The notes under the pieces: model-generated
Database searches by the model: none
Told to the model about the DNA's origin: nothing
What the model saw: the letters and a program-made list of their open reading frames with translations, nothing else
Source of the DNA: Escherichia coli
GTDB lineage: Bacteria > Pseudomonadota > Gammaproteobacteria > Enterobacterales > Enterobacteriaceae
Assembly (NCBI RefSeq): GCF_024502345.1
Contig: NZ_JALDNN010000001.1
Reading direction: 5' to 3' (one strand)
Length of the DNA: 64,000 nucleotides
Shown: in pieces, positions 4,220 to 30,986 of the stretch
How the letters are laid out: each line of letters opens with the position of its first letter
Numbering within the stretch: the stretch's first letter is position 1
Position numbers and translations under genes: made by a program

Positions 4220-5404
4220 TTAACGGCTAAAGAAAGCGCGCTGGATCGCCAGTTCGACACCGCGAACTTCGGCCAGGCCTTTCAGACGACCAATTGCGGA
4301 GTAACCTGGGTTGGTTTTCTTCTTCAGGTCGTCCAGCATCTGATGACCGTGGTCCGGACGCATCGGGATCAGGTCTTCTTTGCCTTCCGCTTTACGACGG
4401 TGTTCTTCTTCAACAATCGCTTTCACCACTTCGTACATATCAACGTCACCGTTCAGGTGCGCCGCTTCGTGGAAGGTTTTCGGGTTATCTTCACGCATGG
4501 TGGAGCGCAGATGGGTGAAGTAAATACGCGGACCGAACTGCTTGATCATATCAACCAGATCGTTGTCAGCACGCACGCCGTAGGAACCGGTGCACATGGT
4601 AAAACCGTTTGCCATGCTGTTTACGGTATCAACCATCCACTGCATATCTTCAATGGTGGAAACAATGCGCGGCAGGCCGAGGATCGGGCGCGGCGGATCG
4701 TCCGGGTGAACAGCCATACGCACGCCAACTTCTTCGGCAACCGGAATAATCGCTTTCAGGAAGACGGCAAAGTTTTCGCGCAGTTTGGCTTTGTCGATAT
4801 CTTTGTACAGCTCCAGGTGTTTACGGAACTGGTCGAGGGTGTAGCCTTCTTCCGCGCCCGGAAGACCAGCAATGATGTTACGGGTCAGACGCGCTTTGTC
4901 TTCGTCGCTCATAGTGGCGAAGCGAACAGCAGCCTGAGCAATTTCTTCTTCGGTGTAATCCGCTTCCGCGCCTGGACGTTTCAGGATATGCATTTCGAAT
5001 GCAGCGAATTCGATCTGGTCGAAGCGCAGCGCTTTGGAGCCGTCTGGCAGCACGTATTCGAGGTCAGTACGGGTCCAGTCGAGCACCGGCATGAAGTTGT
5101 AGCACACGGTGCGAATGCCACACTGCGCCAGGTTGCGCAGAGTCTGCTGATAGTTAGCGATCCACTGCTCATAGTTGCCAGTGTGGGTTTTGATATCTTC
5201 GTGAATTGGTACGCTTTCTACGACAGACCACACCAGGCCTGCGTCTTCAACGATCGCCTTGCGTTTGAGGATCTCTTCTACGGACCATACTTCGCCGTTC
5301 GGGATATGGTGCAGCGCGGTAACCACGCCAGTTGCGCCCGCCTGACGGACATCAGCTAAAGAAACCGGATCGTTTGGGCCGTACCAGCGCCAGGTCTGTT
5401 CCAT
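4220..5404 (-). CDS. uxuA: Mannonate dehydratase UxuA (394 aa)
   Basis: ORF contains [28 protein letters not shown]...; start set to the internal ATG at 5404, preceded by gaaagaggaaaaatc (Shine-Dalgarno). Confidence 0.9.
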
Positions 5405-5564
5405 GATTTTTCCTCTTTCACATAGTGGGTTCCACAGCAAAGAGACGCGGAACCCTGGAGTTGTTTAGGTATCCGGATGAACAACCAGACCGCAGCCGTG
5501 GCGTTGCATCGGATGAGATGGCGTATAAGTTCTACCTTTTGGTAAGACATGTCAACCCGAATTC

Positions 5565-5582
5565 TGAAATTGGTTAACCACA
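5565..5582. promoter_or_regulatory. Putative UxuR/ExuR operator upstream of uxuA
   Basis: aaattggttaaccaca contains the perfect palindrome tggttaacca and resembles the AAATTGGT..ACCAATTT hexuronate operator consensus; lies ~160 bp upstream of uxuA. Confidence 0.4.
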
Positions 5583-5741
5583 TCACAAGAATTTCACTCT
5601 CCTGGTTGTTGCTGCAAATTGCAGCAAAAGGTTATCGATGGTTATTGATCAGAGGATGTGACATTCATCGCAACAATGGTTGACCAATTTACATAACATG
5701 TCGCCCAAAATAACAACGGTTCAACCAGGTAAGGTAAAACG

Positions 5742-5947
5742 TTATGCATGTGCTTAACATTCTCTGGGTAGTATTCGGTATCGGCCTGATGCTGGTACTG
5801 ACAAAGACCGCAGGTTCAGACACATTCGCTGCATTAGCAATGCCTCTTAGATAATTTTGACCTGTCAGTAAAAGACACGTTGAAAACCTGGGGTCTGCTG
5901 GAGCTGGTCAACTCCGTGGTTGGGCTGATTATTAGCAAGGTAGCGTA
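5742..5947 (+). pseudogene. gntP: Remnant of gluconate-family permease gene (gntP position): N-terminal ~36 codons plus C-terminal ~30 codons, internal ~1.1 kb missing
   Basis: ORF MHVLNILWVVFGIGLMLVL... hits a stop after 36 codons; a different frame ends ...[25 protein letters not shown] at 5947; both look like the ends of a GntP-type permease divergent from uxuA. Assignment is from recall and synteny. Confidence 0.4.
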
Positions 5948-5949
5948 AA

Positions 5950-6120
5950 AGAACACCAGAGCCTGCCAATGGCAGGCTCTGACTGATGACAAAGTCTAAA
6001 AATGTGCCCGGACAGTCCCCTCGCCCCTCCGGGGAGAGGGTTAGGGTGAGGGGAACAGACCAGCAAAGTGCGCTTTGTTTATGCCAGATGCGACGCTGAC
6101 GCGTCTTATCTGGCCTACAA
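5950..6120. repeat. Intergenic repeat cluster: terminator-like hairpin, GC-rich BoxC-like palindrome, and REP
   Basis: agagcctgccaatggcaggctct hairpin; cccctcgcccctccggggagagggttagggtgagggg; gccagatgcgacgctgacgcgtcttatctggcctac (REP). Confidence 0.5.
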
Positions 6121-6264
6121 AGGGCTAACGTGCAGGTTTTTAGCTTCAGGTAATATTGCGTAACTGCATTAGCAATGCCCTGTGATTTCTTTATTGATAA
6201 ACAAAAGTCGGTGATGCTGCCAACTTACTGATTTAGTGTATGATGGTGTTTTTGAGGTGCTCCA

Positions 6265-6540
6265 GTGGCTTCTGTTTCTATCAGCTGTCCCTCCTGTTCA
6301 GCTACTGACGGGGTGGTGCGTAACGGCAAAAGCACCGCCGGACATCAGCGCTATCTCTGCTCTCACTGCCGTAAAACATGGCAACTGCAGTTCACTTACA
6401 CCGCTTCTCAACCCGGTACGCACCAGAAAATCATTGATATGGCCATGAATGGCGTTGGATGCCGGGCAACCGCCCGCATTATGGGCGTTGGCCTCAACAC
6501 GATTTTCCGCCATTTAAAAAACTCAGGCCGCAGTCGGTAA
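6265..6540 (+). CDS. insA: IS1 InsA (91 aa)
   Basis: [40 protein letters not shown]... recognised as IS1 InsA. Confidence 0.9.
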
Positions 6541-6962
6541 CCTCGCGCATACAGCCGGGCAGTGACGTCATCGTCTGCGCGGAAATGGACGAACAGTGGG
6601 GATACGTCGGGGCTAAATCGCGCCAGCGCTGGCTGTTTTACGCGTATGACAGGCTCCGGAAGACGGTTGTTGCGCACGTATTCGGTGAACGCACTATGGC
6701 GACGCTGGGGCGTCTTATGAGCCTGCTGTCACCCTTTGACGTGGTGATATGGATGACGGATGGCTGGCCGCTGTATGAATCCCGCCTGAAGGGAAAGCTG
6801 CACGTAATCAGCAAGCGATATACGCAGCGAATTGAGCGGCATAACCTGAATCTGAGGCAGCACCTGGCACGGCTGGGACGGAAGTCGCTGTCGTTCTCAA
6901 AATCGGTGGAGCTGCATGACAAAGTCATCGGGCATTATCTGAACATAAAACACTATCAATAA
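6459..6962 (+). CDS. insB: IS1 InsB (167 aa; normally expressed as InsAB' by frameshifting)
   Basis: 167-aa ORF overlapping insA within IS1. Confidence 0.85.
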
Positions 6963-6977
6963 GTTGGAGTCATTACC

Positions 6978-7415
6978 GATTATGTAATCGCCTAAACTCT
7001 TTGATAGCCGACGTTTCAAGCAACATGGATTTGCCTGAATTTAAAGCAGCCATTAATTTATCAAGGGACTGTGCGAACTTACCTGCTGGGTCTGTCGGTG
7101 TATCACGTGTTGTCGAAACAAAATGATAGATGTACATTTCATCTTCATGCTTCGTATTAATGTAAGTAAGATGAATAGCAACCGCATACGCAGGGCCACC
7201 GGACTCACTAAATTCATCACCAACAATTAAGAAATCACCAAAACCATTCATACCCTCTTCTTCATAATTAAGATGAAGATCTGAAAAGAACTCAGAATCG
7301 GGATGGTCAGCATTTCGTCTTTTTTCAAAGCCATCTTTAATTAAAATTCTTTCTGAACCCGAAAAATGTTTTCGATAAGCTTTAGAACAATAGTTAGAAA
7401 TAAATACATGTTTGT
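6978..7415 (-). pseudogene. Partner gene B, C-terminal segment (separated from the N-terminal segment by IS3; 3' end cut by IS1)
   Basis: ORF ...HVFISNYCSKAYRKHFSGSERILIKDGFEKRRNADHPDSEFF...EFRRLHNR is in frame with segment 8674..9082 once IS3 and one TGT copy are removed; the last codon and the stop codon lie inside the IS1 terminus (6973..6977). Confidence 0.7.
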
Positions 7416-7445
7416 TGATCCTACCCACGTAATATGGACACAGAC

Positions 7446-8312
7446 CTAAGCGAGGTTCTGGTTTTCAAATTGTTCCGGACTGAGGCCGCCACACCAACTG
7501 TGCCGCCGCCACCGATTGTAATCACATTCGATATAATTAAACACCGTTGCCCGCATTATTTCCCGGCTGATAAAGTGTTCTCCATGGATACATTCCACTT
7601 TCAGCGAATGAAAGAAGCTTTCCACGCAGGCATTATCGTAGCAGCAACCTTTTGCGCTCATACTTCCACGCAGATTATGCCGCTTCAGTTGCGCCTGATA
7701 ATCTGCTGAACAGTACTGGCCTCCACGGTCCGTGTGAACGATAACGTTCCGGGGCCTCTTACGCCGCCACAGCGCCATCTGCAGGGCATCGCAGGCCAGT
7801 TGCGCCGTCATGCGTGGCGACATTGACCAGCCAATAACGGCACGTGACCACAGGTCAATGACCACTGCCAGATACAGCCAGCCTTCATCTGTACGTAAGT
7901 ACGTGATGTCTCCTGCCCACTTCTGGTTCGGGCCACTGGCGTAAAAATCCTGCTCCAACAGATTTTCTGACACAGGCAGGCCGTGTGCGCGGTAGCTGAC
8001 CGGGCTGAACTTCCGGGAGGCCTTTGCCCTCAGTCCCTGACGGCGCAGGCTTGCCGCCACGGTTTTTACGTTAAAGGGGTAACCCTGAGCACGCAGTTCA
8101 TCCGTCAGGCGTGGGGCACCGTAACGCTGTTTTGACCGGGTAAAAGCCGCGAGGACAACGCTGTCGCAGTGTTGGCGGAACTGCTGACGCGTGCTTATCC
8201 TTGTCCGCCGCTGACACCACGTATACCAGCCGCTGCGGGCCACCCGGAGCACGCGGCACATTGCTTTGATGCTGAACTCAGCCTGATGTTTTTCAATAAA
8301 GACATACTTCAT
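7446..8312 (-). CDS. insF: IS3 transposase OrfB / InsF (288 aa)
   Basis: [36 protein letters not shown]... recognised as IS3 InsF with integrase-core motifs. Confidence 0.9.
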
Positions 8313-8608
8313 TTCAGGCGCTTCGCGAAGTATGTCGCGGCCTTTTGGAGGATAGCCAGCTCTTCATCCCGTTCTGCCAGCTGGCGTTTGAGACGTGCAA
8401 TCTCGGTAGACATCTCCAGTTCACGTTCAGAAGACGTCTGCTGATTTTGCTGTTTACTGCGCCAGTTGTAGAGCTGTGATTCATACAGGCTGAGTTCACG
8501 GGCTGCGGCAGTAACACCGATGCGTTCAGCAAGCTTCAGGGCTTCACTGCGAAATTCAGGCGAATGCTGTTTACGGGGTTTTTTACTGGTTGATACTGTT
8601 TTTGTCAT
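8309..8608 (-). CDS. insE: IS3 OrfA / InsE (99 aa)
   Basis: ORF contains [32 protein letters not shown]...; start set at the MTKTV methionine. Confidence 0.85.
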
Positions 8609-8673
8609 GTGAGTCACCTCTGACTGAGAGTTTACTCACTTAGCCGCGTGTCCACTATTGCTGGGTAAGATCA

Positions 8674-27344: not shown

Positions 27345-27655
<311 letters not shown>

Positions 27656-28131: not shown

Positions 28132-30986
28132 TGGAAAAGACATATAACCCACAAGATATCGAACAGCCGCTTTACGAGCACTGGGAAAAGCAGGGCTACT
28201 TTAAGCCTAATGGCGATGAAAGCCAGGAGAGTTTCTGCATCATGATCCCGCCGCCGAACGTCACCGGCAGTTTGCATATGGGTCACGCCTTCCAGCAAAC
28301 CATCATGGATACCATGATCCGCTATCAGCGCATGCAGGGCAAAAACACCCTGTGGCAGGTCGGTACTGACCACGCCGGGATCGCTACCCAGATGGTCGTT
28401 GAGCGCAAGATTGCTGCAGAAGAAGGTAAAACCCGTCACGACTACGGCCGCGAAGCTTTCATCGACAAAATTTGGGAATGGAAAGCGGAATCCGGCGGCA
28501 CGATTACCCGTCAGATGCGCCGTCTCGGCAACTCCGTCGACTGGGAGCGTGAACGCTTCACCATGGACGAAGGCCTGTCCAATGCGGTGAAAGAAGTTTT
28601 CGTTCGTCTGTATAAAGAAGACCTGATTTACCGTGGCAAACGCCTGGTAAACTGGGATCCGAAACTGCGCACCGCTATCTCTGACCTGGAAGTCGAAAAC
28701 CGCGAATCGAAAGGTTCGATGTGGCACATCCGCTATCCGCTGGCTGACGGTGCGAAAACCGCAGACGGTAAAGATTATCTGGTGGTCGCGACTACCCGTC
28801 CGGAAACCCTGCTGGGCGATACTGGCGTAGCCGTTAACCCGGAAGATCCGCGTTACAAAGATCTGATTGGCAAATATGTCATTCTGCCGCTGGTTAACCG
28901 TCGTATTCCGATCGTTGGCGACGAACACGCCGACATGGAAAAAGGCACCGGCTGCGTGAAAATCACTCCGGCGCACGACTTTAACGACTATGAAGTGGGT
29001 AAACGTCACGCGCTGCCGATGATCAACATCCTGACCTTTGACGGCGATATCCGTGAAAGTGCCCAGGTGTTCGATACCAAAGGTAACGAATCTGACGTTT
29101 ATTCCAGCGAGATCCCCGCAGAATTCCAGAAACTGGAGCGTTTTGCTGCACGTAAAGCGGTCGTTGCTGCGGTTGACGCACTCGGCCTGCTGGAAGAAAT
29201 TAAACCACATGACCTGACCGTTCCTTATGGCGACCGTGGTGGCGTGGTCATCGAACCGATGCTGACCGACCAGTGGTACGTGCGTGCCGATGTCCTGGCG
29301 AAACCGGCAGTTGAAGCGGTTGAGAACGGCGACATTCAGTTCGTACCGAAGCAGTACGAAAACATGTACTTCTCCTGGATGCGCGATATTCAGGACTGGT
29401 GTATCTCTCGTCAGTTGTGGTGGGGTCACCGTATCCCGGCATGGTATGACGAAGCGGGTAACGTTTATGTTGGCCGCAACGAAGACGAAGTGCGTAAAGA
29501 AAATAACCTCGGTGCTGATGTTGTCCTGCGTCAGGACGAAGACGTTCTCGACACCTGGTTCTCTTCTGCGCTGTGGACCTTCTCTACCCTTGGCTGGCCG
29601 GAAAATACCGACGCCCTGCGTCAGTTCCACCCAACCAGCGTGATGGTATCTGGTTTCGACATCATCTTCTTCTGGATTGCCCGCATGATCATGATGACCA
29701 TGCACTTCATCAAAGATGAAAATGGCAAACCGCAGGTGCCGTTCCACACTGTTTACATGACCGGCCTGATTCGTGACGACGAAGGCCAGAAGATGTCCAA
29801 ATCCAAGGGTAACGTTATTGACCCACTGGATATGGTTGACGGTATTTCGCTGCCAGAACTGCTGGAAAAACGCACCGGCAATATGATGCAGCCACAGCTG
29901 GCGGACAAAATCCGTAAGCGCACCGAGAAGCAGTTCCCGAACGGTATTGAACCGCACGGTACTGACGCGCTGCGCTTCACCCTGGCGGCGCTGGCTTCTA
30001 CCGGTCGCGATATCAACTGGGATATGAAACGCCTGGAAGGTTACCGTAACTTCTGTAACAAGCTGTGGAACGCCAGCCGCTTTGTGCTGATGAACACGGA
30101 AGGTCAGGATTGCGGCTTCAACGGCGGCGAGATGACGCTGTCGCTGGCGGATCGCTGGATTCTGGCGGAGTTCAACCAGACCATCAAAGCGTACCGCGAA
30201 GCGCTGGACAGCTTCCGCTTCGATATCGCCGCAGGCATTCTGTATGAGTTCACCTGGAACCAGTTCTGTGACTGGTATCTGGAGCTGACTAAGCCGGTAA
30301 TGAACGGTGGCACCGAAGCCGAACTGCGCGGTACTCGCCATACGCTGGTGACCGTGCTGGAAGGTCTGCTGCGCCTCGCGCATCCGATCATTCCGTTCAT
30401 CACCGAAACCATCTGGCAGCGTGTGAAAGTACTTTGCGGTATCACTGCCGACACCATCATGCTGCAGCCGTTCCCGCAGTACGATGCATCTCAGGTTGAT
30501 GAAGCCGCACTGGCCGACACAGAGTGGTTGAAGCAGGCGATCGTTGCGGTACGTAACATCCGTGCAGAAATGAACATCGCGCCGGGCAAACCGCTGGAGC
30601 TGCTGCTGCGTGGTTGCAGCGCGGATGCAGAACGTCGCGTAAATGAAAACCGTGGCTTCCTGCAAACCCTGGCGCGTCTGGAAAGCATCACCGTGCTGCC
30701 TGCCGATGACAAAGGTCCGGTTTCCGTTACGAAGATCATCGACGGTGCAGAGCTGCTGATCCCGATGGCTGGCCTCATCAACAAAGAAGATGAGCTGGCG
30801 CGTCTGGCGAAAGAAGTGGCGAAGATTGAAGGTGAAATCAGCCGTATCGAGAACAAGCTGGCGAATGAAGGCTTTGTCGCCCGCGCACCGGAAGCGGTCA
30901 TCGCGAAAGAGCGTGAGAAGCTGGAAGGCTATGCAGAAGCGAAAGCGAAGCTGATTGAACAGCAGGCTGTTATCGCCGCGCTGTAA
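28131..30986 (+). CDS. valS: Valyl-tRNA synthetase ValS (951 aa)
   Basis: [26 protein letters not shown]...; class I HIGH-type motif ([13 protein letters not shown]) and KMSKS present. Confidence 0.95.

Follow-up and report, generated by a model that had tools for sequence, protein, structure and literature searches.

In E. coli, deletions between short direct repeats arise by slipped mispairing or by RecA-independent illegitimate recombination, lacI being the classic case. Sequence may also be altered by templated mutagenesis, with template switching at microhomology; quasi-palindrome-templated mutation and the complex junctions of the FoSTeS/MMBIR type are known forms. The locus described here, the interval between uxuA and fimH in a 64-kb stretch of E. 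coli DNA (the whole stretch analysed, hereafter the window), resembles both kinds of event in part. As in deletions between short direct repeats, a 1113-bp deletion in gntP joins 11-bp repeats and keeps one copy, a 12-bp deletion joins a second pair of short repeats, and a metagenome contig (L109) has lost 280 bp between 11-bp cores. Unlike these, the 16-bp direct repeat that drew attention to the locus represents an unused substrate: both of its copies are present in the window, and one of them was absent before the first deletion. As in template switching, a cluster of base changes lies beside a microhomology junction and in part matches nearby sequence exactly; a 5-nt run, CATTA, is found at the proposed switch point, and the changes perfect a small quasi-palindrome. 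Unlike in the known cases, the template can be traced for just 8–13 nt, leaving about ten other substitutions with no identifiable donor. Moreover, in contrast to quasi-palindrome templating, the donor for gntP would be a direct and not an inverted copy. Our overall reading, which we hold with about as much belief as reserve, is that the two 16-mers are a passive by-product of pseudogene decay, in which the core of one copy was written as a templated patch, and that they represent neither a breakpoint marker nor an IS1 footprint nor a functional motif.

The 16-mer CTGCATTAGCAATGCC has two exact copies in the whole window, both on the + strand, at 5829–5844 (copy 1) and 6164–6179 (copy 2), 335 bp apart. 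The preliminary description had correctly seen two exact copies but placed the second at 6163–6178, one base off. Copy 1, the derived one, lies inside a scar tract of the gntP remnant and within a short ORF (5744–5854) whose start corresponds to the first 19 GntP codons. Copy 2 is part of the native 3′-UTR spacer of fimH, 12–27 nt past the fimH stop. We surveyed the whole window for direct repeats with copies of at least 13 bp no more than 500 bp apart and found that nearly all of them fall within three arrays, tandem or REP, located at 15.46 kb, 27.4 kb and 35.7 kb. The isolated close pairs, window-wide, are the 16-mer pair and a 13-mer pair at 30669, so that the former is the sole isolated close direct repeat of at least 14 bp in the 64 kb. 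A pair as close as the 16-mer copies is expected about 0.01 times in 64 kb of random sequence. The repeat is real and unusual for the window. It does not belong to a dispersed family such as REP or BIME, two exact copies being all that the 64 kb contain. Elsewhere in the window there are five matches with up to three mismatches versus 1.1 expected, which is chance level (five were reached in 3 of 100 shuffles). A near-copy had also been reported at about position 127 (gccattaagcaatgccc, the first codons of an ORF called yjiC), but it shares only the 9-mer GCAATGCCC with the repeat and needs indels to align, a likeness no better than chance. A REP-like extragenic palindrome at 6077–6115 (no strand assigned), a sub-threshold match to the REP-derived naRNA4, does not include the 16-mer. 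As to the arrays themselves, the one at 15460–15560 is a tandem repeat of the CCCTGACAAC type with a 9/18/27-bp period, probably coding; the one at 27360–27640 is REP/BIME-like, with a 96–98-bp period and copies identical over up to 64 bp; and the one at 35640–35820 is an 18-bp tandem array, CTTCTGTAGATTATTTAT / ATTATTTAACTCCTGTAG, with at least five copies.

The window was aligned with four intact gntP alleles, those of K-12, ECJXMCRH7, AHM8C212RI and O157:H7. The uxuA gene runs leftward (− strand), its start reaching to 5404. The gntP start codon is at 5744 (+ strand), and the first 19 codons of the gene, its native 5′ end, are retained at 5744–5800. They end in the 11-bp microhomology TGCTGGTACTG (5790–5800), present as a single copy at the deletion junction. 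Next come the scar tract (5801–5855), colinear with gntP codons ~391–415, and the undiverged 3′ end of the gene (5856–5948), comprising its last ~31 codons and the stop at 5946–5948. Between gntP and fimH, a strong terminator-like hairpin with its T-run on the fimH strand (5955–5983, − strand) follows. The 5′ fragment differs from the intact alleles at one to three positions, depending on the strain, and from 5856 up to the 12-bp deletion the sequence does not differ from them at all. In K-12, TGCTGGTACTG is found at gntP codons 16–19 and again 1113 bp downstream. AHM8C212RI likewise has two copies, and all remnant alleles have one, at the junction, as a deletion between direct repeats would leave it. 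The deletion comprises 371 codons and is in frame; the break in the frame comes later, with a 1-bp deletion just 5′ of copy 1. In the window haplotype, the gntP 3′ end (5856–5948) has in addition one substitution and has lost 12 bp between GCTGATTATT repeats. As a reconstruction from these alleles, the comparison establishes that the 1113 bp of gntP were lost via the 11-bp direct repeats in a common ancestor from which many lineages of E. coli and Shigella descend.

A clean gntP deletion allele retaining a native tract was not found. HH45 (NZ_CP116411.1, 701–1217) was considered as such an allele and rejected, since its gntP deletion, although the 3′ tract is native, has another junction, CTGAATGAGTCC(G)14CGCGACGG, whose poly-G run is probably an assembly or sequencing artefact. 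Upstream of the remnant, an inverted repeat (AAATTGGTTAACCA / TGGTTGACCAATTT, at 5567–5580 and 5677–5690) has been kept in the divergent uxuA–gntP promoter region despite the dead gntP; we take it to resemble UxuR/ExuR operator half-sites.

The position of the true junction bears directly on the proposal, made in the preliminary description, that the 16-mer marks the breakpoint of the rearrangement that removed most of gntP, possibly one linked to IS1. Copy 1 is indeed missing from intact gntP, lies only 29 bp downstream of the TGCTGGTACTG junction and sits directly 3′ of the 1-bp deletion that breaks the frame; its placement at the frame break was well observed, and the copy is specific to the deletion allele. 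However, it was TGCTGGTACTG at which the gene was joined, the parental gene has no copy of the 16-mer at site 1 (the position of copy 1), and the DNA between the two copies was kept, not lost. A deletion between direct repeats leaves one copy, whereas here two flank the remnant, and the 16-mer is therefore not the breakpoint. Nor does the link to IS1 hold, as hundreds of E. coli genomes carry the identical remnant, both 16-mers included, and most of those listed have no IS1. All in all, a role of the 16-mer as the short homology of that rearrangement seems to us improbable in the extreme.

The IS1 element (768 bp, 6210–6977, + strand) begins 30 bp past copy 2 and truncates fimH, of which the last 19 nt (the stop, five codons and 1 nt) remain at 6191–6209 on the − strand and match the fimH 3′ end of L001 and L003. 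Its flanks, ACAAAAGTC and GATTATGTA, contain no target-site duplication, that is, no ~9-bp repeat abutting both ends. In contrast to such a duplication, both 16-mers are left of IS1 (30 and 365 bp from its end), are 16 bp and not ~9 bp long, and are present in genomes without this IS1. What the element does resemble is the product of an IS1-mediated adjacent deletion or of IS1–IS1 recombination, in that it has no target duplication and ~15.8 kb is missing on one side. On its right, IS1 adjoins an internal piece of an sce7725-family gene (the two together occupying window 6210–7445), after which comes IS3 (7446–8617). In E. coli CUVET19-2242, the sce7725-family gene is located ~16 kb from the same gntP remnant, separated from it by fimHGFDCIA, fimE, fimB, nanC, nanM, an esterase fragment, an HNH gene and a RES-domain gene. 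IS1 in the window therefore marks a separate deletion of ~15.8 kb. By this comparison, IS1 came later and independently of the gntP deletion, truncating fimH with the loss of ~15.8 kb, including the fim operon. Shigella and EIEC are known to have lost fim repeatedly (PMC4374849), and such an event is consistent with that pattern; in that account of fim loss in Shigella, gntP figures only as a flank. The local history is thereby corrected: in this strain, gntP and fim were lost in separate events, and IS1 drove the loss of fim alone. E. coli 2017.17.03CC (NZ_AP027829.1, 3036–3733) has an independent IS1 in the stretch of spacer that separates the gntP remnant from an intact fimH, and a second IS1 in fimG, which suggests that the interval is repeatedly targeted by IS1.

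The gntP remnant is widespread. A full-length match to the interval 5400–6215 was found in 846 of 5426 complete E. coli genomes, and the number of those carrying the remnant is 846–852; of the remnant-bearing records listed or examined, all have fimH and most lack IS1. An 87-bp probe spanning the junction and the tract matched 854 of the 5426 genomes, at a single site in each save one genome with two. The remnants fall into two types. B1-type remnants, to which the window haplotype belongs, were found in 664 genomes at 99% identity or above (among the matches listed are E2865, O103 and O111 strains), and B2-type remnants in ~183 genomes at 93–94% (among the matches listed, LF82 and the NC101-derived JA0072); UTI89 has a B2-type remnant too. 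Within the tract the two types differ by ~9%, and change therefore went on after the event that produced it. The tract was also present in 22 metagenome contigs, 15 of LF82 type, four of window type, one of JA0072 type, one intermediate and one special case, L109. RefSeq already annotates the allele as a partial pseudogene in hundreds of genomes, including UTI89, LF82, NC101, O103 and O111, under the labels ‘GntT/GntP/DsdX family permease, incomplete’ or ‘hypothetical protein, missing N-terminus’; these annotations span the 3′ fragment alone. In the searchable literature we found nothing specific to the gntP deletion allele, nor did we find its junction, its scar tract or the repeat described. 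Judging from this distribution, the loss of gntP is an old and common E. coli polymorphism, with B1- and B2-type haplotypes, separate from the IS1-driven loss of fim. In a contig scan of Escherichia species representatives, intact GntP was returned only from E. albertii, Escherichia sp. MOD1-EC7003 and E. coli E69; it gave none for E. fergusonii, E. marmotae, E. ruysiae or the main E. coli representative, which may have either the deletion allele or no locus.

Which of the two copies is the original one is clear from genomes with an intact gntP. The spacer containing site 2 (the position of copy 2) is present in all Escherichia examined, reading CCAGCATTGGCACGTTC in E. albertii, CCAGCATTAACAATGCCC in a cryptic-clade strain and CCAGCATTAGCAATGTCC in K-12, and the exact 16-mer at this site is a common derived variant (T-type, CCTGCATTAGCAATGCCC). 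In intact-gntP genomes the fimH-proximal site is either the exact 16-mer or a 14/16 variant; O157:H7 FRIK944 and AHM8C212RI have the exact 16-mer at this site only. Over the 85 bp that surround site 2, 693 genomes match the window at 100% identity, compared with the 664 that have a window-type remnant. The candidate donor thus pre-exists in genomes without the gntP deletion, as a templated patch would demand. The suspicion that the 16-mer is native to one site only has been borne out: upon alignment, intact-gntP genomes carry the fimH-proximal copy alone, not both, and their gntP site reads CCACATTAACGATGCA. Copy 2 is accordingly best described as a native, polymorphic variant of the spacer.

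The conserved position of the spacer site across Escherichia might also be taken to mean that the 16-mer has a function and that its duplication served some purpose. It contains a perfect 5-3-5 palindrome, GCATT-AGC-AATGC, which could be a protein-binding site or form an RNA or DNA hairpin, for example at the 3′ end of fimH, and the changes at site 1 complete this very palindrome. Yet the hairpin folds only weakly, at −2.9 to −3.5 kcal/mol (z about −1 relative to shuffled sequence), the 16-mer matches no RNA family in Rfam, the stem positions are polymorphic (AATGT in K-12, GGCACGT in E. albertii), and copy 1 lies within a dead gene. The actual terminator would be the strong hairpin at 5955–5983. 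A functional role for the 16-mer is unlikely, and its purposeful duplication we consider very improbable.

If copy 2 is the native one, how did copy 1 arise? In intact gntP, site 1 (CCACATTAACGATGCA) matches the 16-mer at 11 of 16 positions, or at 10 of 13 over the core, and encodes part of LTHINDASFW, a segment invariant in the 15 orthologues examined, out to Yersinia and Gilliamella. In B2-type remnants it reads CTACATTAGCAATGCC, a 15/16 match with an exact 13-bp core, and in the window type one further A-to-G change makes the match 16/16. The haplotypes of copy 1 thus form a series from JA0072 through LF82/UTI89 to the window type. The least derived of them, that of JA0072, differs from native gntP by 14 substitutions over 58 aligned positions and by deletions of 1 bp and 13 bp; the B1-type branch afterwards acquired five or six substitutions and the 12-bp repeat-mediated deletion. 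The substitution density in the tract, ~24–29%, is sharply bounded, with few differences at most within tens of bp on either side, and the changes are biased towards AT (GC→AT versus AT→GC, 11:4). Within the 13-nt core, CATTAGCAATGCC, all three changes are toward the spacer and none of the ten positions that already matched it was altered; relative to the common derived T-type variant of the spacer, CCTGCATTAGCAATGCC, the corresponding count is four changes of four. The alignment score of the tract against site 2 was not reached in any of 2000 shuffles.

These observations suggest a specific, though conditional, sequence of events. The 1113-bp deletion between the two TGCTGGTACTG copies would have been accompanied by a switch of the nascent strand, through the 5-nt microhomology CATTA, to the spacer that lies 335 bp downstream. 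From there, 8–13 nt (GCAATGCC) would have been copied before the strand switched back, probably within the same error-prone, microhomology-driven event as the deletion itself. The later A-to-G change in the B1-type lineage stretched the identity to 16 bp, and the resulting pair is now a substrate for slipped-strand deletion of the gntP 3′ remnant together with the spacer. The longest run common to both sites before the event is the 5 bp of CATTA, which is too short for RecA-dependent conversion; therefore, of the two, only a microhomology template switch would fit. We consider it an evenly balanced proposition that the core stems from such a switch, copying GCAATGCC during the deletion event.

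A caveat is that the spacer accounts for just 3–5 of at least 14 substitutions in the tract. Since most of the substitutions did not come from the spacer, another process must have altered the tract, and that process would have been able to yield the match by chance. The alternative, then, is convergence: the tract may have been changed by something unrelated to the spacer, such as prolonged neutral decay within an old pseudogene island, a bout of error-prone synthesis or the import of an unsampled diverged allele, with the prior 10/13 likeness of the core helping the match along. The GC→AT bias and the small deletions are what pseudogene decay would produce, and the ~9% difference between B1- and B2-type tracts points to change that continued after the event. 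When we placed 14 random substitutions on the native segment and looked for a match of at least 13 nt across the 4.5-kb locus, 0.9% of the runs gave one (p ~0.009, post hoc), and the repeat had been picked by a reader scanning for repeats. On the other hand, the partner is on the same strand and just 335 bp away, and with the partner so limited (same strand, at most 400 bp) the chance falls to ~0.001; the significance of the match is thus p ~0.001–0.01, again post hoc. It also counts against convergence that all core changes went toward the spacer and spared the matching positions at a substitution density of ~24%, and that a divergence of 24–29% on one lineage, between near-identical flanks, would be hard to reach by in-situ neutral decay within E. 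coli. Counting against the patch, spacer variants that have 11 bp in common with the deletion allele and those that have 13–16 bp are equally linked to it. Taken together, convergence by chance is a plausible account, although one that we would place on the doubtful side.

The k-mers of the tract match the local region at chance level, the 13–16-mer excepted, and outside the core the tract has no significant fit to the spacer. A permissive alignment in which the tract was pieced together throughout from native gntP and spacer ‘explained’ 11 of the 14 substitutions, but shuffled or random genomic donors did equally well in ~10% of cases (p ~0.1), and this mosaic was rejected as over-fitted. That the spacer and the native 3′ end of gntP are anciently homologous was likewise dismissed, their similarity being no better than chance. 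We also considered copying of the tract from a functional orthologue or paralogue. This does not fit, as invariant residues are altered and as no second tract copy or other donor was found in the 5426 E. coli genomes, beyond the remnants at the uxuA–fimH locus, or in plasmids. Other short templated pieces, sought in the locus and the window, were just 9–12-mers at chance frequency. At its start, the JA0072 tract reads GCAATGACC, which is like the core GCAATGCCC at 8 of 9 positions (window 5801–5812 versus 5835–5844 and 6170–6180); all four substitutions there are at positions that mismatched the core, three of them toward it, which is not significant once corrected for offset (p ~0.04–0.3).

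What could have produced a tract of this kind as a whole is more speculative. It may be the fossil left in a wild E. coli ancestor by one complex event of replication or repair, in which the microhomology-mediated 1.1-kb deletion, localized hypermutation and the 8–13-nt patch from the spacer occurred together, an MMBIR-like ‘templated scar’ that has since spread to ~16% of the species; or it may be the relic of a pseudogene allele older than the species. We put this forward as a suggestion that would rather surprise us if correct. The sole unusual feature of the locus is the dense, sharply bounded scar with its possibly templated core. The scar beside the junction is a minor curiosity, but if it was templated or hypermutated in one step, it would show complex repair mediated by microhomology as it occurs naturally in bacteria. 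The 16-mer pair itself is essentially ordinary and carries little weight for biology at large.

The fate that such a pair may meet is illustrated by L109, a metagenome contig (OIEU01002450.1, 3509–3640) in which the 280 bp between the repeat sites, comprising the gntP 3′ remnant and the spacer, have been lost. The junction reads ...CACATTCCCTA-CATTAGCAATG-TCCTGCGATTTCTTTATTGATAAAC, where the one remaining CATTAGCAATG is the shared 11-bp core. Compared with the otherwise near-identical, parent-like contig L094, exactly 280 bp are gone, as a deletion between direct repeats would have it, in this one contig; the same type of deletion is found in none of the 5426 complete E. coli genomes. Among repeat-mediated deletions at the gntP locus it is the third, known from a single contig. 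The locus, a textbook example of reductive decay through losses at short direct repeats with an IS1-mediated deletion beside it, records a small series of reductive deletions, each at a 10–11-bp direct repeat. The deletion in L109 is the expected fate of such a repeat and the only visible consequence of the pair.
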